64,000 bases of DNA, from the NCBI GenBank assembly GCA_000002435.2, contig CM018792.1; one strand, written 5' to 3'. Below are positions 7,007-48,205 of this stretch, piece by piece; positions within the stretch are counted from its first letter, which is position 1, and every line of letters starts with the position of its first letter. This stretch comes from Giardia intestinalis. Lineage: Eukaryota. Made by a program: the position numbers and the translations under genes. Under the pieces are notes generated by a model. The model was not told where the DNA came from and did not search any database. It saw only the letters and a list, made by a program, of their open reading frames with translations.

Positions 7007-10000
7007 ATGCCCGTCACTGGCGTCAAGGTGGCCGTGCGCATTCGACCGCTCAACTCACGGGAGAAGGATATGAAGTCCAAGGTGTGCGTGGACACCCCGA
7101 CAGCAAACAGGGTAGTCATCTTTGACCCTAATGGTGATAAGAAGGCACACACGTTCATTTACGATTATGCGTACTGGTCATTGGATGGTCGGTATGAAAA
7201 AGCTACTCAGGACGTTGTCTATAGAGACCTAGGGGCTAATATTCTAAATAACGCCTTCGAAGGCTACAACTATACGATTTTTGCATATGGTCAGACAGGC
7301 TCTGGGAAATCATACACCATGATGGGATCGCTGCAGAATGAGACCGAAGCTGGCCTAATTCCTCGAGCCTGCAGGGAGCTATTTCAACGAATAGAAGCAT
7401 ACGAGGAGGCAGATCCTGCCCACACGACAGAGTTCCAGGTCTCCGTTTCCTACCTCGAAATTTACAATGAGAAACTAAAAGATCTGCTGACCTCAAAGAG
7501 TAAGCAGCGTGAGCTAAAGATCCGGCAGGATCCCAAGACCGGGGTCTTTGTGCAGGACCTCAGCCACCACGCAGTTCGCAGTGCCTTTGAGATACAGAGG
7601 CTGCTGGACATAGGCGATAAAAATAGAACGGTTGCATCAACTAATATGAATGCTACCAGCTCCCGCTCTCACTCAGTTTTTACAATCATGTTCAAGAAGA
7701 TAACTATTAAACACAATAGTTCGGGTAAGATATGTGGAAAGTCGCAGCTCTCCTCCACCATAAGTCTTGTCGACCTGGCTGGATCTGAAAGGCTTGCTTC
7801 AACGGGTTCTGTGGGCGCCCAATTTGTCGAGGGAGTGTCTATCAACCAATCTTTAACGACCCTTGGCATGGTCATTGAAGGGTTGGCCTACAATTCCAGC
7901 TGTGAGTCGAAGAAGAAGCACAAGTTCATTCCATATAGAGATTCACAACTCACATATCTTCTTCAGGATGCGCTGGGTGGGAACGCCATGACCTGCATGG
8001 TTGCTACCATCTCTCCAGCAAATATAAATTATGATGAATCTATCTCCACCCTACGGTATGCAGACAGAGCAAAGCACATTAAGAATGTCGTCCAGAAGAA
8101 CGAGACGGCACAAGAGCGTTACATTAAAGAACTGGAAGACCGTGTAAAGGAGTTGGAGAAGATGCTCATTAATGGCACGCACCCAGCTAACACCGCCGAC
8201 GCTGCTGGATCAACAGAGGGGGAGGCAGACATACGGGCCAAAATAGAGGAGTATGAGCGGCTACTTCAGGTGACGAACATCAATTATGAGAAGCAGCTCG
8301 AACAGTCTGCTCGCATTCAAAAGGATCTTGAAAAGAGACTAATTGAGATGGGAATAGAGCTCACGTACGGTGCTAAAGTTAATGTACCGTATATCTCAAA
8401 TCTGAACGCTGATTCAGCCATGTCGCACACGTTGCTATTTAAATTGGGGACCACAGAAGATCTCATGGCTCACACCGAAGTGACCACTGTTTGTGGCTTC
8501 AAAATGCAGGATACCATTCCAAGTACCTACCGAATCAAGTTGCCGTCTGTTTTGGGGGTTGCCCCGAGCCACTTTAAGGTTCGTAACACAAATAAGGTAA
8601 TAGCTATGGATAACCAGCAAGGCTATTGCCTGTATCCGAAGATGATTGCTGTCTATGTGAGTGTTCTGGATAGCAAGTACCCCATTTTCATCAACGGAGT
8701 AGAGCTCACAGTAGGCACTGAGCGGTTGCTTCAGCACGGGGATCGAATCCTCTGTGGGGCTTGTCTGGAATCCTCCTTCTTCTGCTACAATGACCCTATA
8801 GCAGTTAAGTATGCCAATGACAAGGCGAAAGCATCAAGCCTTACGTTTGTTCCGCCGGAGATCACGTGGGACATGGCTCACGAGGAGTATATGAAGCACC
8901 AAACAGGTGGAGACGACGTAGAGGAGGAGAACCCGTTGCGCGTCGAGGGAAGCTTTTTAGCATCTCCACAGACACACCAGGAGGACGGTGCAGATCTAGG
9001 CAAGGTGCCAGAGGCTAGGCGTGGAGCAGAGGATCATGCTTCAAAGGATGACCTCCGTACAGAGGGCGAGAAGAATGTGCACAGAGCTATCAAGAAAATG
9101 TACCCGTATATCTGCGAGGCCAATGCGCTTGCAGACTTTTTTGACTATCATACTCGTTTTTCTCTGGAGATCCGCAGTTTAATTGAGCCAGATCAGGAAT
9201 CCAATATGCGCCCCATCAGGAAGAACGCTATAGAGGTTGTGGTAACAGATATAGATGAAAATCCCAACACGGGGGAGGTTTCTGCTATCAAGCAGACGTG
9301 GAGTGTCAATAAGTTTATTCAGCGCTTTACAATTATGAAAAATATGTATGAACACGCCATCCAGTGCGACAGCAAGGAGATTGCCCTTGAGTATGCACGG
9401 GAGCGCTGTAATAGCGATGACTACACTGCAGACGAGTTCCCCTTTGACTTTGACGCGGTTGACGAGATCCGCTTCACTGCTCACCTCATAGGTACATGCC
9501 GTCTCTGCTTGAAAGATATCATCTTCAAGGATGTTCACGTTCAAGGTCGTCTCCAGTTCTCGGATTATCGTGGACGCCCAATGTCAGAAGTCGATTCAGA
9601 AGTGGACAGAGCTATTTCAAATGCAGATCACTACGACGACATTGCGCTGGACGATGTATCCAACGTCTCCATTCGCTTCCACTTTCACAAGGCTTACGGG
9701 GTCCCCGTTATTTACACCAAGAATGTGCATGTAGTGGTCCATTATCCCTCGTTCATGGCGAACTCTGAGAGGCCGGATTGCAGGCTTACAGAGGCCCAGG
9801 AAAACACATTTCGCCGGAAGCTTCTGGCAAACGACTGCGGGATAGCATCGAAGCCTAGCGTGGAGATCAGTATCAATCCCCTTCTTGACAGCATAGTCTA
9901 CATAGATATACCCGCTAAGTATTTCGCCGACCCCGCTGTCAAGGAATGGCTCCTAGACTCTAAGAATGGGATTCTTCTATCCTTGTATGGATACAACAGC

Positions 10001-10228
10001 AACATTTACGACACATCAACGCCTGTTTCACACATTGAAGCTCCTACACCAATCCATGAGATCCCAATTCAAAATGACGCCGATTCAGCCCAAAAAGGGA
10101 AGGTAACCATCAACGCCCGGAATGTAATTAAAACGCAGCAGATGCCCGACAAGGAAGAGGAGGCAGAGGATGGCTCAAAGATAATAGTTCGTCGGCAGAT
10201 ATTCTTCATAGACATCAATAAGAGGTAG
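7007..10228 (+). CDS. Kinesin-3 family motor protein (motor domain followed by an FHA-like domain), normal GC content
   Basis: Motor domain begins MPVTGVKVAVRIRPLN, with P-loop FAYGQTGSGKSYTM, switch motifs NMNATSSRSHSVF and VDLAGSER, and neck YIKELEDRVKELE. An FHA-like region (HFKVRNTN...INGVELT...HGDRI) lies downstream, as in Unc104/KIF1. The ATG follows an AT-rich 'ttattaaaataaagtgaa'. Confidence 0.9.
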   Translation: MPVTGVKVAVRIRPLNSREKDMKSKVCVDTPTANRVVIFDPNGDKKAHTFIYDYAYWSLDGRYEKATQDVVYRDLGANILNNAFEGYNYTIFAYGQTGSGKSYTMMGSLQNETEAGLIPRACRELFQRIEAYEEADPAHTTEFQVSVSYLEIYNEKLKDLLTSKSKQRELKIRQDPKTGVFVQDLSHHAVRSAFEIQRLLDIGDKNRTVASTNMNATSSRSHSVFTIMFKKITIKHNSSGKICGKSQLSSTISLVDLAGSERLASTGSVGAQFVEGVSINQSLTTLGMVIEGLAYNSSCESKKKHKFIPYRDSQLTYLLQDALGGNAMTCMVATISPANINYDESISTLRYADRAKHIKNVVQKNETAQERYIKELEDRVKELEKMLINGTHPANTADAAGSTEGEADIRAKIEEYERLLQVTNINYEKQLEQSARIQKDLEKRLIEMGIELTYGAKVNVPYISNLNADSAMSHTLLFKLGTTEDLMAHTEVTTVCGFKMQDTIPSTYRIKLPSVLGVAPSHFKVRNTNKVIAMDNQQGYCLYPKMIAVYVSVLDSKYPIFINGVELTVGTERLLQHGDRILCGACLESSFFCYNDPIAVKYANDKAKASSLTFVPPEITWDMAHEEYMKHQTGGDDVEEENPLRVEGSFLASPQTHQEDGADLGKVPEARRGAEDHASKDDLRTEGEKNVHRAIKKMYPYICEANALADFFDYHTRFSLEIRSLIEPDQESNMRPIRKNAIEVVVTDIDENPNTGEVSAIKQTWSVNKFIQRFTIMKNMYEHAIQCDSKEIALEYARERCNSDDYTADEFPFDFDAVDEIRFTAHLIGTCRLCLKDIIFKDVHVQGRLQFSDYRGRPMSEVDSEVDRAISNADHYDDIALDDVSNVSIRFHFHKAYGVPVIYTKNVHVVVHYPSFMANSERPDCRLTEAQENTFRRKLLANDCGIASKPSVEISINPLLDSIVYIDIPAKYFADPAVKEWLLDSKNGILLSLYGYNSNIYDTSTPVSHIEAPTPIHEIPIQNDADSAQKGKVTINARNVIKTQQMPDKEEEAEDGSKIIVRRQIFFIDINKR

Positions 10229-11991: not shown

Positions 11992-12356
11992 GGGAAATTG
12001 CTTTTTGTGAAATGATCTTTTACATAAAGCTTTTAGTCATGTGGGAGGGGCTACGGCACTATCGCACTCCACTAAGTCAAGAGGCATGTGTTCATGTCTA
12101 CCATAAATGGCGGAGTACATGGACATTTCAACTAGTATTTGTTACGCTGCTATCTTCTTCGTAGTTGCCATATTGTGAATAGCACAATCACTATTTACAC
12201 AAATGCTGTTTACTTCCCTACAAATTTGACATTTTATATGAAGGCGCAGATCAGCAATATTTTTCACCACATCTATTAAGCCATCGTCCCCTTTAGACAT
12301 AAGTGGAGTAGACACTCTCATTTGAACATGTCTTAAATGGCACAGGCTGGAGCTTT

Positions 12357-13541
12357 GACAAAAAAGAAATGCCGGTGACAGGGGTCAAGGTCGCGGTGCG
12401 CGTCCGGCCGTTCAACGCGCGCGAGAAGAAGGAGGCGGCGCGGCTCTGCGTCGACATGCCGGGCGGGGGGAAGGTCGTCCTCCGGGACGCAGACGCGAAG
12501 AAGCCCGACGCGGCGTTCGTCTACGACCACGCGTACTGGTCCCACGACGCGAGCCGCCCGTGCGCGACCCAGGACACGGTCTACGCAGACATCGGGCCGA
12601 GCGTCCTCGACAACGCGTTCGAGGGCTACAACTACACGCTCTTCGCGTACGGCCAGACGGGCTCCGGGAAGTCGTACTCGATGATGGGCGCGCCCGCGAG
12701 CGAGGCCGACGCAGGGATCATCCCGCGGGTCGGGCGCGAGCTCTTCCGCCGCGCCGCCGCCTCGCCCGCCGAGACGCAGGTCTCCGTCTCGTTCCTCGAG
12801 ATCTACAACGAGCGGCTCCGGGACCTCCTCGTCCCCGCCGCGGGCGCCCAGGAGCTCCGGATCCGCCAGGACCCCGCGGCGGGCGTCTTCGTCCAGAACC
12901 TCAGCCACCACGCGGTCGCCGACTACGACGCGATCCAGCGCCTGATCGAGCTCGGGGACCGGAACCGGACGGTCGCGGCGACGAACATGAACGCGACGAG
13001 CTCGCGCTCGCACTCCGTCTTCGCGATCGAGGTCGTCCAGACGGCGGTCCTCCGGAACGACGCGGGCGAGGAGGTCGGGCGCCACGTCAAGCGCGCCCGG
13101 GTGAGCCTCGTCGACCTCGCGGGGTCCGAGCGCCAGGGCAAGACGGGCGCGACGGGCGACCGCCTGACGGAGGGCATCAGCATCAACAAGTCCCTGACGA
13201 CCCTCGGGCGCGTCATCGAGGCGCTCGCGTACAACACGACCGCGGAGGGCCGCCGGAAGCCCCAGCACGTCCCGTACCGCGACTCCCAGCTGACGTACCT
13301 CCTCCAGCCCGCGCTCGGGGGCAACTCGATGACGTGCATGATCGCCGCGATCTCGCCTGCGTCGACGAACTACGACGAGAGCCTCTCGACCCTCCGCTAC
13401 GCAGACCGCGCCCACCAGATCGAGAACACCGTCACGAAGAACGAGTCTGCCCAGGAGAAGTACATCCGCGAGCTCGAGGACCGCGTCAAGGAGCTCGAGG
13501 CCCTCCTCGCCGGGGGCGCCCCCGCCGGGGACGCAGGTGCC
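12357..13541. repeat. Inverted repeat copy A (about 1.18 kb, ~75% GC), partner at 44303-45487
   Basis: By direct comparison, nucleotides 12369-13541 are the reverse complement of 45475-44303. The only difference I found is a/g at codon 21. Identity extends about 12 nt upstream of the ATG (aaaaagaaatg) and ends at ...gacgcaggtgc. Confidence 0.85.
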
Positions 13542-15449
13542 GGCAATGATGCGTCAAGCACTAACGTTTCCCAAATGCAGGATATCCTTGAAGAGTATAA
13601 GCGCATGCTTGACGAGGCAAACGTTGATAATGCAAAACGCCTCGAGGACGCAGAAAGAGAAAACAAGGCTTTGGAAGAAAGCCTCAACCAATTTGGTCTG
13701 TTAAAAGACTCTCCAACTCACTCCTACCTTCTCTCTCTTAATGAAGATCCTTTGCTTTCTGGCTTGCTGCGTTACAGAATCGTAGGAAAAGAGACAGACA
13801 AGAGTCATTACGTTGCTGTGTTCGGAAATCAAGAGACTGAAAACCCGAAGTTTGATGATTCCATCGTGCTTGCCAACAAGCTTGGCCTTGAATTCGAGCA
13901 TTTCACCATCACATATACAGCTACTGACAATAAGTATGTCCTTGCGTGCCTTTCTGAGACAGAACCTGTCATGCTTAATGGTGATTATCAGCTTCATGAC
14001 ATGGAGCCTGCTACTCTCTTCCACGGAGACTTCCTTAAGTGCGGAGATGGTAACGGAGCATACTACGTGTTTGTCGATCCTAAGCAACAAGAGGCCAATC
14101 CTCTTCAGATATCTCTGCTCTATGATGAGGCGGTCTCCCAGTTTGTTTCAAAGAATGGGACTATTAATCCATTGAACAAGCTTCCTGATCAATACACAGA
14201 GGAGGAGCAACACTCTACAGATGGCCAGCCTGCACAAGATGAACAGGTTTCACCGCCTTCCAGCTCCATCGATATAGAGCGCAATAAGCAGCGCCTCAAG
14301 GAAAAAGAGAAGTATCTACAGATACGTGATGAGATGCTTGATCTATTCCCCAAGCTTTGTGAGGCATCCCAGTTGGCTCGCTATTTCGGCCAGCAGATTG
14401 AGTATTCCATGGACTACGCCACTACCATTGAACAAACAAAGTCTGGATTTCCTAGTTTGAACTACGAGATATCAGTCCAGGCCTCCGTGCGGGTGTATAA
14501 TCCTGGGTTTGAAGAGTACACAAGTGATATCCACACGTGGTCGGTCACTAAGTTCCTGCGCAAGTATTCGGCACTACGTGCTCTCTTCTCCCACGCAGTG
14601 GAAATCAACGATAAGGCCAAGGCTATTGAAGACATGGAGCGTGAGCTCGCGAATGACCCGTGTCTTGGTCTTGATCATCCATTTAGGATGGATGAATCAG
14701 CCCTTCCGGAGTATGATGAATGGACACACTTCATTGGAGAGCTTCAGCTGAATATAGCAGACCTGTGCAAGACTTACACCATTTCTCGTAGACGCCTGCC
14801 AATCTTGAACCCTACTACCCGCGAGGTCATCAGCGATGTAGAATTAGAGGCCTGTATCCCTAATCCTTGCAAGCATGATGGATATGAATGTGAGGCCTTC
14901 GCCGATAGGGTCCTTAAAGTTGGGGAACCATGCTCCATATCAATCTATGTTCACAGGCTCTATGGCATCAAGCCTTTGTATAACGCCAATGTCCATGCCG
15001 TAGTTCACAAGCCGGCGTACTTGGGTATTCCTAACTCCACCCGTCCAAACCGAACGATGACGCCCCAGGAAGAGGACAGGTATCGTAATTTCATCCTGAG
15101 CACAAACCGAGCCGTAGCTTCAAACTGTTCGGGAGAGGTGTCGATAAATCCGCACGTTCGCTCGTGGGTTACTCTAGATCTACCTCCTATCAGTCAAGAA
15201 GGCTATGACTACTTCAGCAGCGGAAAGCCTCTCTATATCTCCTTCTACGGATACTACACCCAGGTCAAGAAGCAGATCCAGAATTCTGCTATTTATAACA
15301 CAAAGGAAAACACTCTTCACATCCATAAACGCAACATTATTGCAACGAAAATGGGTCCTGTGACCACCGAGGTCCGCGACGGAAAAGAGATCAAGACCAA
15401 GGCAGAATTTTATTTCATCGACATCAATGGACCCTGTGGGGCCGAGTAA
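12369..15449 (+). CDS. Kinesin-3 family motor protein (paralog A); the first ~1.17 kb encoding the motor domain is extremely GC-rich and duplicated in inverted orientation at 44303-45475
   Basis: Has the same kinesin-3 motifs (FAYGQTGSGKSYSMMG, NMNATSSRSHSVF, VDLAGSER) and an FHA-like region (HYVAVFGNQE...NGDYQL...HGDF). Codons 1-390 have G/C at almost every third position. Composition drops to about 45% GC abruptly after 13541. Confidence 0.9.
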   Translation: MPVTGVKVAVRVRPFNAREKKEAARLCVDMPGGGKVVLRDADAKKPDAAFVYDHAYWSHDASRPCATQDTVYADIGPSVLDNAFEGYNYTLFAYGQTGSGKSYSMMGAPASEADAGIIPRVGRELFRRAAASPAETQVSVSFLEIYNERLRDLLVPAAGAQELRIRQDPAAGVFVQNLSHHAVADYDAIQRLIELGDRNRTVAATNMNATSSRSHSVFAIEVVQTAVLRNDAGEEVGRHVKRARVSLVDLAGSERQGKTGATGDRLTEGISINKSLTTLGRVIEALAYNTTAEGRRKPQHVPYRDSQLTYLLQPALGGNSMTCMIAAISPASTNYDESLSTLRYADRAHQIENTVTKNESAQEKYIRELEDRVKELEALLAGGAPAGDAGAGNDASSTNVSQMQDILEEYKRMLDEANVDNAKRLEDAERENKALEESLNQFGLLKDSPTHSYLLSLNEDPLLSGLLRYRIVGKETDKSHYVAVFGNQETENPKFDDSIVLANKLGLEFEHFTITYTATDNKYVLACLSETEPVMLNGDYQLHDMEPATLFHGDFLKCGDGNGAYYVFVDPKQQEANPLQISLLYDEAVSQFVSKNGTINPLNKLPDQYTEEEQHSTDGQPAQDEQVSPPSSSIDIERNKQRLKEKEKYLQIRDEMLDLFPKLCEASQLARYFGQQIEYSMDYATTIEQTKSGFPSLNYEISVQASVRVYNPGFEEYTSDIHTWSVTKFLRKYSALRALFSHAVEINDKAKAIEDMERELANDPCLGLDHPFRMDESALPEYDEWTHFIGELQLNIADLCKTYTISRRRLPILNPTTREVISDVELEACIPNPCKHDGYECEAFADRVLKVGEPCSISIYVHRLYGIKPLYNANVHAVVHKPAYLGIPNSTRPNRTMTPQEEDRYRNFILSTNRAVASNCSGEVSINPHVRSWVTLDLPPISQEGYDYFSSGKPLYISFYGYYTQVKKQIQNSAIYNTKENTLHIHKRNIIATKMGPVTTEVRDGKEIKTKAEFYFIDINGPCGAE

Positions 15450-42187: not shown

Positions 42188-45100
42188 TTAGTGTCCAGTA
42201 TCTGTTTTCGTCTGATCCACGAAAATAAACTTCTTTATAATAAGAACTTGCTCTCCGTTGATCTCCTTGAATCCATCCTCCTTGGTCTGGGTCCTGACGA
42301 TGTTTGTGCTAACAATAGCGACCTTCTTCTTGGACGGATCGGGGAGCGCGCTGTCTTTGATCTCGGGCACAAGGGAGTCGGCATAGGCCGAGGTGTACCC
42401 ATAAAGACTGACCTCTAAGCCGGTCCCACTAGTGCGCAGCCATTCCAAGACATCGTCCTGCTTAAAGTAGCTCGTCTTAAGATCCATGTAAATAGTTGAG
42501 TCGAGCGCAGGGTTTGGCGAGAGGTCTGAACTAGAGGCTGTCTGAAAGGTATAGCCCATGTCCAGTAACCTTCGGCGAAACTCATTTTCTTGATAAACGG
42601 AGAGGCGTTTTCCCTTCGGACGTCCAGCGTCCGGGTTGACAAACCATGGCATATGAATCACAGCGTGAACCTTCTTGCAGCACTGGGTGGGTACATTGTA
42701 CGCCTTCTTGAAGTAAGCAGCAATGGTCGTTACAGGGCTTTCGTTCTGAACCAAATTTGCAACATCACATGCGAGGCACTCGGCTCCGTGGTGTGAATAC
42801 CCCGAGCCCAGAAGTGAGAGCGATACATCAATGCTAGTGGCTGCCTTACCCGAGTAGTCATAAATCGGAACGGAAAAGACATCCGTCTCACACGTCTCGA
42901 GAAGACCCGACAGAGGGATACGCCCAACCCCGATAAGGTGAGTTAGGGTCTGGTTATAGATATCTGCCTCCAGATCGAAAGGAAACTCGTCATCATCCTC
43001 TAGATCCCTGTCTGCACTCTCATGTGCCCTGCGCACAGCCTCTTCCTTACCAAGAGTCATCGCAAGTCCGTACATGCGCCTCATGCCGGAGAGTCGCAGC
43101 CCAAATTTCTCTAGTGCCCAGACCTGTCTGATAAGCTTGCGATCCCTGGTTTTGCTGGGGGCAGCCGTGGCCGTCACCAAAATCTCTACGAGTATACCAC
43201 TCAGATCGTCATCAATCTGATCCGCTCGTAAGTCCTTCGTCATTGGATGATTTTTGGACATATTGCGAATGGTCTGACATCGAGCAGCCTGGCGTAGAGA
43301 CGTCGGACTGATAGATGTACGAGCTTGTGCAGCAAAGCGAATGTCATAACAAAAGTACTCTGCTATGGAATTCGCCTCGCAGATAAATGGATAGAGCTGA
43401 CGCAGCACCTCGTGAACCTTCTTTTCATAGGTGGTCCGCTCATCATCGTTTCCAAAATCTGCATAAAAGCTTTCATTGATGTCTGTCTGCACGTTATCTA
43501 AGCCAGGCGTAATTCCAAATGCATCGTCCATGGTAACGGAAACATTCTCCTTAGACACAGGATCATCTCCTATAGGTCTCTGTGCAGTGTCCTTCCCAGA
43601 GCTCTGATAATACGTGTATTCACGTAGTGCAAGATCATACGTTATCTCTGGCTCTACGTAGTCGTAATCCTGTTCCAGAGACTGTTTGACTGCAGCCGCA
43701 CGTGCAGGAGGATCGTAGTAACGATAGAAGGATGACTGGGCCGCAGACCCGCACTTGATACGGTCGCCGTGACGGAGCTGGTGAGTAGAACCAGCAGCTA
43801 TCTGCCTTCCATTGATGTAGAGAGCCCCTTTCGCGCTGAGGGGCCTTATAGTGGCTTCAGTGACTTTGGGAAAGATAGGATTAGCGGTTGAGTCAACGAC
43901 TTTGCCTGTCAAGGAAATAATAAAGTGCTCACCAAGCACACCGAGTTTGCTGACAAGGGCTATCCTGCACTGGCACTCTGTCGGCCCACTATCATCTGCA
44001 CCAACGACAACAGTAACAGGACGAGCATCTTTAAGATCATTCTCAGAACATAACGTATAAATTAGCTGGCCATTATCAGAAGCATTTGAGCTCAAATTGG
44101 ATATATACGGAGTGGTAATTTCTGACCCAAAAGCTGCCGCGAGGCCCATCTTTTTGAGCTTATCTTGTAGCTCTTGTCTGTTCTGCTCCGCTCTGGCTAG
44201 CTTCTCCTCTAGAGATTGATTCCCTTCCTTAAGAAGTCTGTCATACTCGGCTATCTTTGCTTCTAATTCTAAGCGCTCAGCATCAGACAGGCCTGGTTCT
44301 ACAGCACCTGCGTCCCCGGCGGGGGCGCCCCCGGCGAGGAGGGCCTCGAGCTCCTTGACGCGGTCCTCGAGCTCGCGGATGTACTTCTCCTGGGCAGACT
44401 CGTTCTTCGTGACGGTGTTCTCGATCTGGTGGGCGCGGTCTGCGTAGCGGAGGGTCGAGAGGCTCTCGTCGTAGTTCGTCGACGCAGGCGAGATCGCGGC
44501 GATCATGCACGTCATCGAGTTGCCCCCGAGCGCGGGCTGGAGGAGGTACGTCAGCTGGGAGTCGCGGTACGGGACGTGCTGGGGCTTCCGGCGGCCCTCC
44601 GCGGTCGTGTTGTACGCGAGCGCCTCGATGACGCGCCCGAGGGTCGTCAGGGACTTGTTGATGCTGATGCCCTCCGTCAGGCGGTCGCCCGTCGCGCCCG
44701 TCTTGCCCTGGCGCTCGGACCCCGCGAGGTCGACGAGGCTCACCCGGGCGCGCTTGACGTGGCGCCCGACCTCCTCGCCCGCGTCGTTCCGGAGGACCGC
44801 CGTCTGGACGACCTCGATCGCGAAGACGGAGTGCGAGCGCGAGCTCGTCGCGTTCATGTTCGTCGCCGCGACCGTCCGGTTCCGGTCCCCGAGCTCGATC
44901 AGGCGCTGGATCGCGTCGTAGTCGGCGACCGCGTGGTGGCTGAGGTTCTGGACGAAGACGCCCGCCGCGGGGTCCTGGCGGATCCGGAGCTCCTGGGCGC
45001 CCGCGGCGGGGACGAGGAGGTCCCGGAGCCGCTCGTTGTAGATCTCGAGGAACGAGACGGAGACCTGCGTCTCGGCGGGCGAGGCGGCGGCGCGGCGGAA

Positions 45101-45475
45101 GAGCTCGCGCCCGACCCGCGGGATGATCCCTGCGTCGGCCTCGCTCGCGGGCGCGCCCATCATCGAGTACGACTTCCCGGAGCCCGTCTGGCCGTACGCG
45201 AAGAGCGTGTAGTTGTAGCCCTCGAACGCGTTGTCGAGGACGCTCGGCCCGATGTCTGCGTAGACCGTGTCCTGGGTCGCGCACGGGCGGCTCGCGTCGT
45301 GGGACCAGTACGCGTGGTCGTAGACGAACGCCGCGTCGGGCTTCTTCGCGTCTGCGTCCCGGAGGACGACCTTCCCCCCGCCCGGCATGTCGACGCAGAG
45401 CCGCGCCGCCTCCCTCTTCTCGCGCGCGTTGAACGGCCGGACGCGCACCGCGACCTTGACCCCTGTCACCGGCAT
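42188..45475 (-). CDS. Kinesin-3 family motor protein (paralog B); N-terminal ~390 codons are the GC-rich inverted copy of 12369-13541
   Basis: First ~383 aa are identical to paralog A except K21R. The tail then diverges (coiled coil, FHA-like ...INGRQIAAGSTHQLRHGDRI...) and has normal GC. Confidence 0.9.
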   Translation of the reverse strand: MPVTGVKVAVRVRPFNAREKREAARLCVDMPGGGKVVLRDADAKKPDAAFVYDHAYWSHDASRPCATQDTVYADIGPSVLDNAFEGYNYTLFAYGQTGSGKSYSMMGAPASEADAGIIPRVGRELFRRAAASPAETQVSVSFLEIYNERLRDLLVPAAGAQELRIRQDPAAGVFVQNLSHHAVADYDAIQRLIELGDRNRTVAATNMNATSSRSHSVFAIEVVQTAVLRNDAGEEVGRHVKRARVSLVDLAGSERQGKTGATGDRLTEGISINKSLTTLGRVIEALAYNTTAEGRRKPQHVPYRDSQLTYLLQPALGGNSMTCMIAAISPASTNYDESLSTLRYADRAHQIENTVTKNESAQEKYIRELEDRVKELEALLAGGAPAGDAGAVEPGLSDAERLELEAKIAEYDRLLKEGNQSLEEKLARAEQNRQELQDKLKKMGLAAAFGSEITTPYISNLSSNASDNGQLIYTLCSENDLKDARPVTVVVGADDSGPTECQCRIALVSKLGVLGEHFIISLTGKVVDSTANPIFPKVTEATIRPLSAKGALYINGRQIAAGSTHQLRHGDRIKCGSAAQSSFYRYYDPPARAAAVKQSLEQDYDYVEPEITYDLALREYTYYQSSGKDTAQRPIGDDPVSKENVSVTMDDAFGITPGLDNVQTDINESFYADFGNDDERTTYEKKVHEVLRQLYPFICEANSIAEYFCYDIRFAAQARTSISPTSLRQAARCQTIRNMSKNHPMTKDLRADQIDDDLSGILVEILVTATAAPSKTRDRKLIRQVWALEKFGLRLSGMRRMYGLAMTLGKEEAVRRAHESADRDLEDDDEFPFDLEADIYNQTLTHLIGVGRIPLSGLLETCETDVFSVPIYDYSGKAATSIDVSLSLLGSGYSHHGAECLACDVANLVQNESPVTTIAAYFKKAYNVPTQCCKKVHAVIHMPWFVNPDAGRPKGKRLSVYQENEFRRRLLDMGYTFQTASSSDLSPNPALDSTIYMDLKTSYFKQDDVLEWLRTSGTGLEVSLYGYTSAYADSLVPEIKDSALPDPSKKKVAIVSTNIVRTQTKEDGFKEINGEQVLIIKKFIFVDQTKTDTGH

Positions 45476-45487
45476 TTCTTTTTTTAC
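44303..45487. repeat. Inverted repeat copy B (partner of 12357-13541)
   Basis: See copy A. The outer end coincides with the kinesin-B start codon (45475). The (TAGGG)3 tract lies 45 bp beyond it. Confidence 0.85.
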
Positions 45488-45519
45488 TGGTTCTAGTATA
45501 GGATGGTGTATAGGTCATG

Positions 45520-45534
45520 TAGGGTAGGGTAGGG
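45520..45534. repeat. Interstitial telomere-like repeat (TAGGG)x3 within a degenerate TAGG-rich tract (about 45496-45536)
   Basis: The sequence is tagtataggatggtgtataggtcatgTAGGGTAGGGTAGGGta. TAGGG is the pentameric telomere unit reported for Giardia (from memory). Confidence 0.6.
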
Positions 45535-45566
45535 TAAACACTTACCTCTAGACTACGATGCTCCAT

Positions 45567-45605
45567 ACTAGAGAGCTCGGATCCAAAAAATAGAATTCGA
45601 GCTCT
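45567..45605. repeat. Imperfect palindrome (13-bp arms agagctcggatcc / gaattcgagctct, 8-bp A-rich spacer), dense in 6-cutter sites, immediately 5' of the ATG at 45608
   Basis: XbaI tctaga at 45547. SacI gagctc at 45573 and 45599. BamHI ggatcc at 45579. EcoRI gaattc at 45593. The arms match at 11 of 13 positions. Confidence 0.6.
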
Positions 45606-45607
45606 TG

Positions 45608-48205
45608 ATGACAAGCGCGCTTCCCCGAACACCAGACCTAGCGTATCTTTCTGCAGATGCTCCCCGATCTGTTGAACGATTTCCAACTACTCAGGAGCCT
45701 CCCGAAAATCAGGCTATGAGGCAGTCGTCCAGTACACTTGTTGGTGGTCTCAATGCCAACGACTCAATGGCACGCAGCTCGACGAACTACATGGGAGAGT
45801 CTCAGCTGAATACTATTGAAAGTCTTCAGATGGAGGCACAGCGAAAGGACAAGCTTCTAGAGAAGCTCAACATACAGCTCAGAGAACGCGAAGAGCAACA
45901 TGACAGAGACATGGAGGCATTATCTGAAATGCAAGAGCTATTGGACAAGAAAGAAGAGCAAATAAGCGAGCTAGCTCTCGCTGTTAGCCAAAGAATGGAG
46001 GTACAGGCAGATAATGCATTGACAGAGAGTCTTACACTTAATGGCTGGGACATGCTTGATACAAATGATGGAGTGAAGGACCCCACCAATCAGGGCACAC
46101 AGAATCTTGGTGATAGCCTGGATCTGACTGTCAGTACTCCGCACTCTGCCCGCTCGGCAGGGCCACTAGAGGCAGACGCATTAAGGCACTCTATACGCAA
46201 ACTTCAGTTTCAGCTTACTCAACGCGATCGTCTGCACCTAGATACTGAGATTTCTAATCAAACTTATCGTGACGAGATCCAGCATTTAAAGGACGAAAAT
46301 TCCCAATATCAAACGCTGATCACCTCACAGGCCGATGAAATACAGATGCTACGCGAACAGCAGATAGGCGAGACAGAAGAACTAGCAGCAATGGAAGAAG
46401 AAATCTCTGTTCTTCGTACCACTCTAGCAGAGAAGCTGCAGCTCATAGAGTCCTTGACCGCTGAGGCGCAAGTTTCTAAGACGCAGCTCCTAGAAATGAA
46501 GGATGCTACGCTTCTCGTTCAGCATTCCGCAGATGTTGCCACAGCAGAAATAGAGACCGCAACAGAAGAAATCACGACCCTCCGCGTGGAGCTAGAGGCT
46601 GAGCGGCAAAAGGTAATTGATTTACAAGCTGCGCTTGACCACGAAAAGTTTGCATCCAAGCAGAAAACGCATGAATACACTGAGGTACTTACCAATCTTT
46701 CCCACTCTCACGGTGTTGTTAACTCTCTGGAAACGCAAATACAAGACATGGAGACACACGCTAGAATAAAGGACGAAGAGATTGAAGCCCTGCAGCTTAA
46801 GTGTAGGTCGCTTCAGCTGGAATTGGACGATACTCGCGCTCAACTAGAGAAGGCCATGAACAACGTAACAACCTTGGTACCAAACCTGTCTCCAGATGAG
46901 CTTGCAACAATATTGTCTGACAACAATAGGATGCTCAATATGCTCACAGACAATGCATCAGAAACAGAGGCATTGCTGGCTGCCAATGAGAAGCTTCAGG
47001 CTTCAAATGGAGAGCTAAAGAAGATGAATGCAGAACTTGTCGCCAGAATGGAGCATCTTTCAATTATGGATTCTGCAGAAACTTCGGAAGCAGCATCGAA
47101 TCAAGCCGCGCTTCTGGACGCAAAAAACAAAATGATCAATAAGTTAGAGGTAGAGCTGGACTCACTACGTCAGAAGTACCACTTGATGGAAAAATCCCTC
47201 AACGAACAGTTAGAGGCCGTCACTGTGGCCAAGGTGACACTGGATGCAGAGAATTCAAGGCTACGCACAGAGCTACAGAGCGTTGAGCCTCAGACCATGA
47301 GTAGTATGAACAGCGCCACAAGCATTAGCATTGCTGGGGGCCACTCCCCAGGCCGTGCTGGTAGCATATCATCACAGGTTATGGGATTGAACTCAGATAT
47401 TACACGCCTGCAAAATGAACTACGCCGCAAGGATGCTGAGATGGACAATATGAGTACGCAAATAGCAACCATCATGGAGGAAATACTATCGGTCCGCCAG
47501 GCCAACATGTCTCTGGAACAGGACGTGCAAGCCTTATCGCAAGAAGCTGAGTATCACAAAGGTCAGGCGTCCATGTTAGAGAAGACGCTTGCTCAGACAC
47601 GCGAGGAGCTCCGCATAACCTTGGACAAGACTCGCGTGGGAGAACTCATTGAGGCACTGAATGGGAAGACAGCAGAAGTCACTAAATTGATTCGCGTAAT
47701 CGAAGAAAAGAACTCGCAGATAAAGGACATGCAAATAGAGCTTGATGGAAGGGTACTAAGTGGTACGACCGGTAAGGTTATGCAGGCAACAATCAAGAAC
47801 CTTGAAGAAGAAATTCTGCGCCTCAACCAAGAATTGGAGCTTGTTGTTATCTCCAATGAAAGCCTGGAAAGCCGTCTACATAGCATGGGTGGGAGTATTG
47901 GACAGCCCCAGCCTCAGACACTGGCGGCCAAGATGCCTGTCAATTCAACTACAAATTTCCATGAGCGTGAAGACCATCTAGGCAGCGATGCATCCTCCGT
48001 CTCAGCAACCATAAGGATGCGTCAGCTCTCTGAAGAGGTGTTATCTCTCAAGGACACCATCGCTAATCTCACAACCACGCTGAAGCAGAAGGATGCACGC
48101 CTAGAAGAGGTATCGTCCGAGCTTTCAGTCAAGTATGTGGAGCTAGATAACATGAGGGGGCTTATTAAAAAGAAGAACGAACAACTTATGCAGCTGATGA
48201 AGTAA
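45608..48205 (+). CDS. Long coiled-coil protein (about 865 aa)
   Basis: Heptad-rich, E/K/L/Q-dominated sequence throughout. The track start at 45605 is TTG, and the ATG is at 45608 directly after GAATTCGAGCTC. First of four tandem same-strand coiled-coil genes. Confidence 0.7.
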   Translation: MTSALPRTPDLAYLSADAPRSVERFPTTQEPPENQAMRQSSSTLVGGLNANDSMARSSTNYMGESQLNTIESLQMEAQRKDKLLEKLNIQLREREEQHDRDMEALSEMQELLDKKEEQISELALAVSQRMEVQADNALTESLTLNGWDMLDTNDGVKDPTNQGTQNLGDSLDLTVSTPHSARSAGPLEADALRHSIRKLQFQLTQRDRLHLDTEISNQTYRDEIQHLKDENSQYQTLITSQADEIQMLREQQIGETEELAAMEEEISVLRTTLAEKLQLIESLTAEAQVSKTQLLEMKDATLLVQHSADVATAEIETATEEITTLRVELEAERQKVIDLQAALDHEKFASKQKTHEYTEVLTNLSHSHGVVNSLETQIQDMETHARIKDEEIEALQLKCRSLQLELDDTRAQLEKAMNNVTTLVPNLSPDELATILSDNNRMLNMLTDNASETEALLAANEKLQASNGELKKMNAELVARMEHLSIMDSAETSEAASNQAALLDAKNKMINKLEVELDSLRQKYHLMEKSLNEQLEAVTVAKVTLDAENSRLRTELQSVEPQTMSSMNSATSISIAGGHSPGRAGSISSQVMGLNSDITRLQNELRRKDAEMDNMSTQIATIMEEILSVRQANMSLEQDVQALSQEAEYHKGQASMLEKTLAQTREELRITLDKTRVGELIEALNGKTAEVTKLIRVIEEKNSQIKDMQIELDGRVLSGTTGKVMQATIKNLEEEILRLNQELELVVISNESLESRLHSMGGSIGQPQPQTLAAKMPVNSTTNFHEREDHLGSDASSVSATIRMRQLSEEVLSLKDTIANLTTTLKQKDARLEEVSSELSVKYVELDNMRGLIKKKNEQLMQLMK

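Follow-up and report, generated by a model that had tools for sequence, protein, structure and literature searches.

A telomere-like (TAGGG)3 tract and a restriction-site-rich palindrome in a probable compact divergent promoter of Giardia intestinalis

Between two head-to-head genes of Giardia intestinalis, and directly beside one arm of a long inverted repeat, lies a short spacer that holds both exact copies of a telomere-like unit and an imperfect palindrome crowded with restriction sites. Is this spacer the scar of a broken or fused chromosome, a remnant of a cloning vector, a cruciform-forming element, or ordinary promoter DNA in which such motifs happen to occur? We addressed this in a stretch of 64,000 nucleotides (the window), which is part of a 2.76-Mb chromosome contig of the WB isolate, whose reference is a PacBio assembly (PMC7000408); three of three proteins from the window match WB proteins exactly. 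The relevant features are collected in Table 1. We consider it probable that the spacer is a natural compact divergent promoter serving kinesin-3 'B' and GL50803_0014963, and that the tract and the palindrome within it are coincidental.

Table 1. Coordinates of the spacer, its elements and the adjoining genes (positions are those of the window).
Feature	Position	Strand	Basis or remark
Kinesin-3 paralogue 'B' (XP_001709752.1), 1095 aa	42188-45475	-	ORF and gene identity
Inverted-repeat arm B, 1181 nt (kinesin-3 motor domain plus 9-nt leader)	44304-45484	-	Partner arm 12360-13540
Intergenic spacer, head-to-head, 132 bp	45476-45607	.	ORFs, gene identities and five-lineage alignment
A-rich initiator-like TAAAAAAAGAA, -11 to -1 from kinesin-3 'B' ATG	45476-45486	-	Element class as in PMC1885649, PMC3792122
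Two degenerate 12-nt unit copies, GTATAGGATGGT / GTATAGGTCATG	45496-45519	+	Each with TAGG
(TAGGG)3.6 telomere-like tract	45519-45536	+	TRF: 3.6 copies, 100% matches
TACT box, invariant (TTTACT in non-A lineages)	45566-45569	+	About 40 nt upstream of ATG
Imperfect palindrome; 8-nt loop between 13-nt arms that match at 11 of 13 positions	45572-45605	.	Assemblage-A specific
AAAAATAGAATTC, 13 invariant bases, -22 to -10 from ATG	45586-45598	+	Invariance in alignment
GL50803_0014963, coiled-coil hypothetical protein, 865 aa, without Pfam domain	45608-48205	+	ORF, identity and Pfam

The surroundings of the spacer are those of a core housekeeping region: Pfam and the source annotation place kinesins, RtcB, kinases, a radical SAM protein, clathrin and an amino-acid transporter around it, and none of the sequence classes that mark Giardia subtelomeres (VSP genes, rDNA, GilM/GilT retrotransposons) was found by the same means among the neighboring genes. 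An Rfam scan of 45300-45800 matched no family at E <= 1. We aligned the orthologous spacer in seven sequences from five Giardia lineages, and found that its head-to-head arrangement is kept across lineages; the initial annotation was probably right in taking this for promoter DNA. Invariant in the alignment are AAAAATAGAATTC, the TACT box and the ATG at 45608, the last unchanged in all 7 sequences. Giardia promoters are known for an AT-rich initiator located at the start site near the ATG and for short 5' UTRs (PMC1885649; PMC3792122), with AT-rich 11-mers such as AATTCAAAAAA reported as start-site consensus (PMC3792122). Similar to these, both genes at the spacer have an A/T-rich block within less than about 25 nt of their start codon, the ATCCAAAAAAT seen here resembles the reported 11-mers AATTCAAAAAA and ATTTCAAAAAA, and the very short spacer between head-to-head genes is what has been described for the compact bidirectional promoters of this organism. 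Most genes of the window have a comparable A-rich element in front of them. Unlike the published initiators, which are described as degenerate, the putative one at GL50803_0014963 keeps 13 bases invariant over five lineages. On the published model of Giardia promoters, the coiled-coil gene would most likely be transcribed from within AAAAATAGAATTC, which by this analysis is its likely AT-rich initiator, and the kinesin gene most likely from within TAAAAAAAGAA, whose proximal 9 nt fall inside the inverted repeat. The conserved TACT box may be an upstream promoter element. With its invariance in five lineages, the 13-base initiator block is a clean candidate for promoter dissection.

Five 6-bp restriction sites (XbaI at 45547, SacI at 45573, BamHI at 45579, EcoRI at 45593 and SacI at 45599) and the palindrome are present before the ATG as first described, the latter composed of AGAGCTCGGATCC (45572-45584), the loop AAAAAATA (45585-45592) and GAATTCGAGCTCT (45593-45605). 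Such a cluster had raised the suspicion of a cloning vector, a linker or an engineered junction, and there is some resemblance: 12 nt agree with the pUC19 polylinker at its start (GAATTCGAGCTC) and 13 nt with the pcDNA3.1 polylinker (GAGCTCGGATCCA), and these are the longest matches. Both consist of two adjacent 6-bp sites, however, and stop there, and a search of 45536-45612 against 72,556 plasmids in distant mode returned two chance-level matches (E = 7). The junction moreover recurs, identical or almost so, in 14 independent assemblies of assemblage A, which come from different projects. Besides GenBank DH (AHGT01000029) they represent no fewer than 13 run or assembly accessions; nearly all are named as short-read or metagenome assemblies, and 1 of the 14 has an A-run one base shorter. 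The search of independent isolates suggested at the outset thus identifies the junction as natural sequence. The shotgun assemblies that contain it are uncloned and represent many isolates, and the junction reaches, in part, into other assemblages: assemblage E keeps GGATCCAAAAAATAGAATTCGAGCTCTT, and assemblage B keeps ATCCAAAAAATAGAATTC. We regard the chance of a vector or engineered origin as practically nil.

If natural, the palindrome could still be a conserved cruciform or hairpin that regulates GL50803_0014963 from its start. Palindromes of equal quality (arms of 13 nt with 11 or more matches and a loop of at most 12 nt) number 5 in the window, compared to 6.2 +/- 2.7 in shuffles, and at least five palindromic hexamers per 59 nt are reached at 17 start positions in the window, while the maximum was five or more in 200 of 200 shuffles. 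Because both match shuffled sequence, palindrome and site density are chance, arisen around the conserved A-rich initiator; AAAAATAGAATTC itself contains the EcoRI site and the palindrome loop. The WB palindrome does fold as an 11-bp DNA hairpin of -7.9 kcal/mol with z = -3.6 against local shuffles, but this z-score is inflated since the region was picked after the palindrome had been seen. The arms are not conserved, the assemblage B orthologue is unfolded (z-score +0.27; four mismatches and two wobbles in 11 pairs), and across lineages no pair changed on both sides, with pairing no better than in column shuffles. In addition, a transcript that begins in the A-run would not include the left arm. 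A cruciform-forming element, as had been offered for this site, is therefore very improbable. In the account that we favor, the loop and the EcoRI half-arm would by coincidence be the conserved initiator, and the SacI and BamHI arms would derive from substitutions specific to A or to A and E, without compensatory pattern. As the locus demonstrates, chance can produce a palindrome rich in restriction sites around a conserved initiator of Giardia.

The telomere-like tract calls for a different treatment. As first noted, a perfect (TAGGG)3 is present at 45520-45534, and TAGGG is the Giardia telomere unit (PMC10999387; PMC7000408), which upholds the earlier identification. The 15-mer occurs a single time in the window, shuffles yield 0.04 matches even when up to 2 mismatches are allowed, and in a random-sequence model one would hardly expect 18 nt of exact repeats of the telomere unit of this very species. 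With exact tandem units at a non-terminal position, internal to the contig and with housekeeping genes on both sides, the tract was rightly called an interstitial telomeric sequence (ITS); long ITS are reported to be absent from Giardia (PMC10999387, citing Uzlikova 2017). The 'degenerate flanking units' that had been read as TAGGG pentamers were rejected: the flank is not in register with them and is instead a degenerate 12-nt repeat.

With the end of the 1181-nt inverted repeat 35 nt away, the telomere-unit tract could mark a place where a chromosome broke, healed or fused in connection with the inverted duplication, as initially proposed. Comparison with relatives argues otherwise. The kinesin start and the ATG are retained, with 127-131 bp of spacer between them, in assemblage B and two deeper lineages (82-83% protein identity), yet at the tract position these have one GTAGG or nothing, and the palindrome is likewise absent; the assemblage B sequence there is GAGATGTAGGAAGC. 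There is no break in gene order at the tract relative to these tract-less lineages, and because the gene order predates the tract we reject the scar. The tract is furthermore only 3.6 units long, subtelomeric content is absent among the neighboring genes, and the inverted repeat is a gene-conversion tract of old paralogues rather than a recent palindromic duplication, which leaves a scar exceedingly unlikely. This region of the reference genome is thereby cleared of both the suspected vector contamination and the supposed chromosome rearrangement.

How then did the tract arise? It is fixed, with constant copy number, in 15 of 15 assemblage-A sequences (the window plus the 14 assemblies), and from the lineages aligned (TAGGG)3 appears to be specific to one Giardia lineage, assemblage A. 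Measured from a conserved ATG trinucleotide within the spacer (45517-45519 in WB) to a conserved TTAC, the distance is 9 nt in assemblage B (TAGGAAGCA), 15 nt in assemblage E (AGGTATAG followed by AAAACGC), and 22 nt in assemblage A (TAGGGTAGGGTAGGGTAAACAC), and this series suggests stepwise growth. The assemblage E value holds only if two contigs of P15, the sole representative of this assemblage in the protein cluster, abut: ACVC01000073 and ACVC01000133 break exactly at the tract edges, with ends GAGGTATAG and AAAACGC, and the gap might hide a longer TAGGG run. In both B and E the site is occupied by diverged TAGG-containing sequence, split over the two contigs in E, and no empty site is seen. 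Two metagenome scans for further Giardia lineages with GGATCCAAAAAATAGAATTCGAGCTCTT and CCAAAAAATAGAATTCNNGNTNNTNATG gave no match to any, and two unrelated AT-rich matches.

In the model that we favor, the two initiators are separated by a fast-evolving G/T-rich spacer, and a TAGG-containing stretch of it would have become three perfect TAGGG units in assemblage A, most likely through point changes followed by replication slippage. Local slippage is invoked since it can be seen to have duplicated the neighboring 12-nt unit in part of the A isolates: its copy number varies from 2 to 3 among them, with DH and SRR3177750 each having one additional perfect copy. The constant TAGGG copy number fits a repeat too short for slippage, but also a weak constraint. 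The match to the telomere unit would then be a short-microsatellite coincidence and no relic of a chromosome end.

Another route to the same tract is a telomerase-templated patch, in which the assemblage-A ancestor suffered a double-strand break in this spacer, telomerase added a few TAGGG units there and the ends were joined again. Short ITS of vertebrates have been proposed to form in this way, and the Giardia tract resembles them in having a few exact telomere units at an internal position, in gene-rich DNA that lacks subtelomeric flanks. A run of three perfect telomere units of the organism itself, single in the window, is what such a patch would leave, and telomerase activity is constitutive in Giardia (PMC10999387). 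Also, just upstream of the tract A has less sequence (ATAGGT-C-ATG) than B and E (ATAGGTTATAC...ATG), which fits a small accompanying deletion. However, there is hardly any net insertion, the spacer being 132 bp in assemblage A and 127 bp in assemblage B, and unlike the vertebrate cases the tract of 3.6 units stands at no clear insertion relative to the assemblage B site. The TAGG or AGGTATAG that stands at the corresponding place in B and E would have provided a seed for growth in situ, making slippage at least as likely as telomerase, and the adjacent 12-mer shows slippage at work in this very spacer. By sequence alone, a tract grown by slippage would look the same as one patched in by telomerase together with a small deletion; weighing these points we hold the patch to be rather unlikely. 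If true, it would be direct evidence of Giardia telomerase acting at internal breaks.

Whatever its origin, the tract might have acquired a function, with its G-rich strand and the GG runs upstream bound by the Giardia TATA-binding protein gTBP in its G-tract/G-quadruplex mode or by a telomere-repeat-binding factor, and so tuning one or both genes in assemblage A. gTBP binds G-rich single strands, and Giardia telomere oligonucleotides compete for it in vitro (PMC12209930). The tract sits upstream of both start codons, by 45-59 nt for the kinesin gene and by 74-88 nt for the coiled-coil gene, its fixation in assemblage A would agree with such a role, and the sequence at 45501-45524 can be read as a two-tetrad G4 motif. 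A telomere-unit sequence inside a promoter also recalls the plant telo-box and the yeast Tbf1 sites. Differing from all of these systems, however, the tract is limited to one assemblage, and its G runs are too few for a canonical G4. Assemblage B and the two deeper lineages manage with the same genes and initiators but no tract, the published binding mode of gTBP needs 4-6 consecutive G (PMC12209930), and a TSS-seq study saw no conserved upstream motif in Giardia promoters (PMC3792122). We rejected a canonical intramolecular three-tetrad quadruplex outright because there are just three GGG runs, and a motif of four runs of at least three G spaced 1-7 nt apart was found nowhere in the window on either strand. 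A cis-regulatory role consequently seems to us a slim prospect. More broadly, the view that (TAGGG)3 is not passive, being either a telomerase-templated repair patch or a new promoter module bound by TBP in its G-tract mode, is one we find fairly improbable next to the favored coincidental growth of a microsatellite in a divergent promoter. Should either be true, assemblages A and B would offer a natural allele pair for the effects of telomere motifs on divergent-promoter transcription.

The neighboring inverted repeat merits a description of its own. Its two arms differ at a single base (12430/45414), and in the tails of the two kinesin-3 genes about 60 of 100 aligned positions differ between the paralogues. 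GC3 is 0.96-1.00 in the motor domains that form the arms but about 0.5 in the tails of these genes, a pattern that resembles GC-biased gene conversion, of which the kinesin-3 motor domains are an unusually sharp apparent example. Lying in inverted orientation, the motor domains may also mediate inversion; the segment between them spans 30.7 kb (13541-44303).

The flagged region is an ordinary Giardia divergent promoter with two incidental features, a telomere-like microsatellite and a palindrome, and it lies in the head-to-head spacer between kinesin-3 'B' and the coiled-coil gene GL50803_0014963 (see table). The three window proteins that we tested are exact matches to proteins of Giardia intestinalis WB (ATCC 50803), on a 2.76-Mb contig. 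The initial annotation had noted a telomere-like (TAGGG)3, and this stands, TAGGG being the Giardia telomere repeat (PMC10999387; PMC7000408). Tandem Repeats Finder places an array at 45519-45536 (period 5, 3.6 copies, 100% matches), the only site in the window, both strands checked, with at least two consecutive TAGGG units. Shuffled sequence yields 0.04 matches to the 15-mer with up to 2 mismatches permitted, and the match to the telomere unit is no random-sequence event. The supposed degenerate flanking units are out of register with the pentamer; what lies there is a 12-nt unit in two degenerate copies.

Features of the spacer and of the associated kinesin genes (WB coordinates)
Feature	Position	Strand	Remark
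Third kinesin-3-type gene	7007-10228		2 kb upstream of paralogue A; Kinesin motor, weak FHA and Kinesin_assoc
Kinesin-3 paralogue A	12369-15449	+	exact WB protein match
Kinesin-3 paralogue 'B'	42188-45475	-	exact WB protein match
GL50803_0014963, coiled-coil protein	45608-48205	+	exact WB protein match
Inverted repeat, 1181 nt	12360-13540 / 44304-45484		motor domain of an old pair of kinesin-3 paralogues
Extra-frame ORFs	44429-45496; 44283-45686; 12333-13415; 12560-13549	+; -; -; +	also L001 (compared locus) 3-1193
Head-to-head spacer, 132 bp	45476-45607		contains flagged bases
12-nt unit, two degenerate copies	45496-45519		GTATAGGATGGT / GTATAGGTCATG
(TAGGG)3	45520-45534		read from sequence
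Restriction sites	45547; 45573; 45579; 45593; 45599		XbaI; SacI; BamHI; EcoRI; SacI
Invariant TACT	45566-45569		lineage alignment
Palindrome left arm	45572-45584		AGAGCTCGGATCC
Palindrome loop	between the arms		AAAAAATA
Palindrome right arm	45593-45605		GAATTCGAGCTCT
Invariant block	45586-45598		AAAAATAGAATTC; lineage alignment; includes EcoRI site and palindrome loop
Anchor-to-anchor stretch, B			9 nt; TAGGAAGCA
Anchor-to-anchor stretch, E			15 nt; AGGTATAG then AAAACGC, only if the ends of ACVC01000073 and ACVC01000133 abut between them
Anchor-to-anchor stretch, A			22 nt; TAGGGTAGGGTAGGGTAAACAC

A vector or linker junction, which had also been suggested, is excluded. Looking up exact matches to the coiled-coil protein, and to near-identical members of its cluster, gave contigs from many independent runs and assemblies (including SRR2642205, SRR3602131, SRR3177751, SRR13990249, SRR18693200, ERZ27317378, ERZ19219916, SRR3177750, SRR3177753, SRR21529643, SRR21529626 and GenBank DH, assemblage A2, AHGT01000029), and in 14/14 assemblage-A sequences this spacer recurs, with (TAGGG)3 at precisely that copy number and with the palindrome, so that the junction sought in other isolates is found there and is natural. 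Matches to pUC- and pcDNA-type polylinkers reach no further than 12-13 nt, equal to two adjacent sites, and 72,556 plasmids searched in distant mode gave only chance-level matches (E = 7). The WB reference was assembled from PacBio reads (PMC7000408). The 14 spacers differ only by an extra perfect copy of GTATAGGATGGT in DH (L006 2883-2918) and SRR3177750 (L015; window 45496-45519), a small length polymorphism of possible use for typing within assemblage A, and by an initiator A-run of A5 not A6 in SRR13990249 (L004 ~104-110; window 45585-45590), either a true variant or a sequencing error in the homopolymer.

We then read and aligned the DNA upstream of homologues from P15 (assemblage E, 95%), assemblage B (87%, a cluster including the GS and BAH15c1 proteins) and two deeper lineages (82-83%). 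All aligned lineages share the start codons of both genes, kinesin and coiled-coil, with a 127-132-bp spacer between them, and the gene junction is therefore older than the TAGGG tract; the genes around it are core housekeeping genes with no subtelomeric content among them. Both points speak against a scar of chromosome breakage, healing or fusion, a reading that is not supported. Besides the two invariant blocks in the table the alignment has a third, the coiled-coil ATG, and the remainder of the spacer is lineage-specific, with GAGATGTAGGAAGC at the tract position in assemblage B. Between a conserved ATG trinucleotide within the spacer (45517-45519 in WB) and a conserved TTAC, the lengths of 9 nt in B, 15 nt in E (if the two contig ends abut) and 22 nt in A suggest that a TAGG seed already in place would have grown stepwise in situ into the assemblage-A tract. 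Slippage acts in this spacer, since the neighbouring 12-mer is visibly duplicated, and the near absence of net length gain in the A spacer over that of B counts toward in-situ growth. Less probably, the tract may be a telomerase-templated patch with a small deletion: opposite ATAGGTTATAC…ATG of B and E, the A spacer reads ATAGGT-C-ATG. The tract is an assemblage-A-specific short telomere-like microsatellite, incidental in the promoter. The P15 contigs ACVC01000133.1 (L005 position 1) and ACVC01000073.1 (L020 position 1) break off precisely where the tract would begin and finish, on both sides of window ~45519-45536; possibly a repeat boundary of P15 sits there, a longer TAGGG run is concealed in the gap, or the coincidence is a property of that assembly.

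The palindrome with its clustered restriction sites is present as described, its arms matched at 11/13 positions, but neither property is commoner than in shuffles: the window holds five palindromes of equal quality versus 6.2 +/- 2.7 in shuffles, at least five palindromic hexamers fall within 59 nt at 17 start positions, and the hexamer-density maximum is at least five in every shuffle. Both are at chance level. The WB palindrome folds at -7.9 kcal/mol (z = -3.6, for a region picked after the palindrome was seen), while the assemblage B orthologue has no fold (z = +0.27). Across lineages 0 hairpin pairs changed on both sides and pairing shows no excess over column shuffles, which together argue against a cruciform element. 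At the left SacI arm E has GAGTTT and B has GAGTTC; at the right one B has ACGCTC and the two deeper lineages have GGGTTT. The XbaI site is lost in E. The palindrome is incidental, of chance frequency, and wrapped round a strongly conserved putative initiator.

Giardia core promoters have an AT-rich initiator that holds the start site near the ATG, accompanied ~30 bp upstream by a looser AT-rich element; their 5' UTRs are very short, their output is often bidirectional, and start-site 11-mers include AATTCAAAAAA (PMC1885649; PMC3792122). As most genes of the window also have an A-rich block within ~30 nt of the ATG, we infer two initiators: GL50803_0014963 would initiate in CCAAAAAATAGAATTC, leaving a 5' UTR some 15-25 nt long, and kinesin-3 B in TAAAAAAAGAA. 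The putative GL50803_0014963 initiator block, in which the start-site position is a predicted one, is invariant across the lineage alignment. The variable G/T-rich middle, TAGGG tract included, is most simply spacer, and the region has no match to Rfam families. Regulation by the tract through the Giardia TBP has low probability: telomere oligonucleotides do compete in vitro for the G-rich single-strand binding of gTBP (PMC12209930), but the published binding mode requires 4-6 consecutive G (PMC12209930), the tract has just three GGG runs and hence no canonical G4 motif, and other lineages lack it.

The most notable by-products lie outside the flagged finding, in the kinesin-3 motor domains. 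The arms of the inverted repeat differ at 1/1181 bases and the gene tails at ~60/100 aligned positions, and the repeat ends 9 nt upstream of the kinesin ATG and 35 nt from the TAGGG tract, with identical boundaries in DH; near-identical arms, old diverged tails and shared boundaries indicate a gene-conversion tract, and rule out a recent palindromic duplication or breakage product. The inverted copies have 71% GC and a GC3 of 0.96-1.00, against ~0.5 in the non-repeated tails (13541-15449 and 42188-44303) and 0.55 in the motor domain of the third paralogue (7007-8178), the step being sharp at the repeat edge, likewise in DH and P15. This looks like strong GC-biased gene conversion limited to the ectopic conversion tract; our literature search found no published description of the step. 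The third gene stands outside the conversion group, because it has only a 65-nt stretch, 78% identical, in common with the other two. Other frames and the opposite strand of the GC-rich motor domains contain long ORFs of 329-467 aa, one of which a public assembly annotates as a gene of 396 aa; these ORFs are most likely by-products of extreme GC3, not genes. Compared with window 12369-15449 and 42188-45533, P15 contig ACVC01000073.1 (L020 1-3139) joins the B-type upstream 58 nt and the common motor domain to an A-type kinesin tail; it could be the expected product of inverted-repeat recombination flipping the 30.7-kb segment between the repeats, but an assembly chimera from collapsed repeats, or a conversion tract extending to -58 in P15, would explain it equally well.
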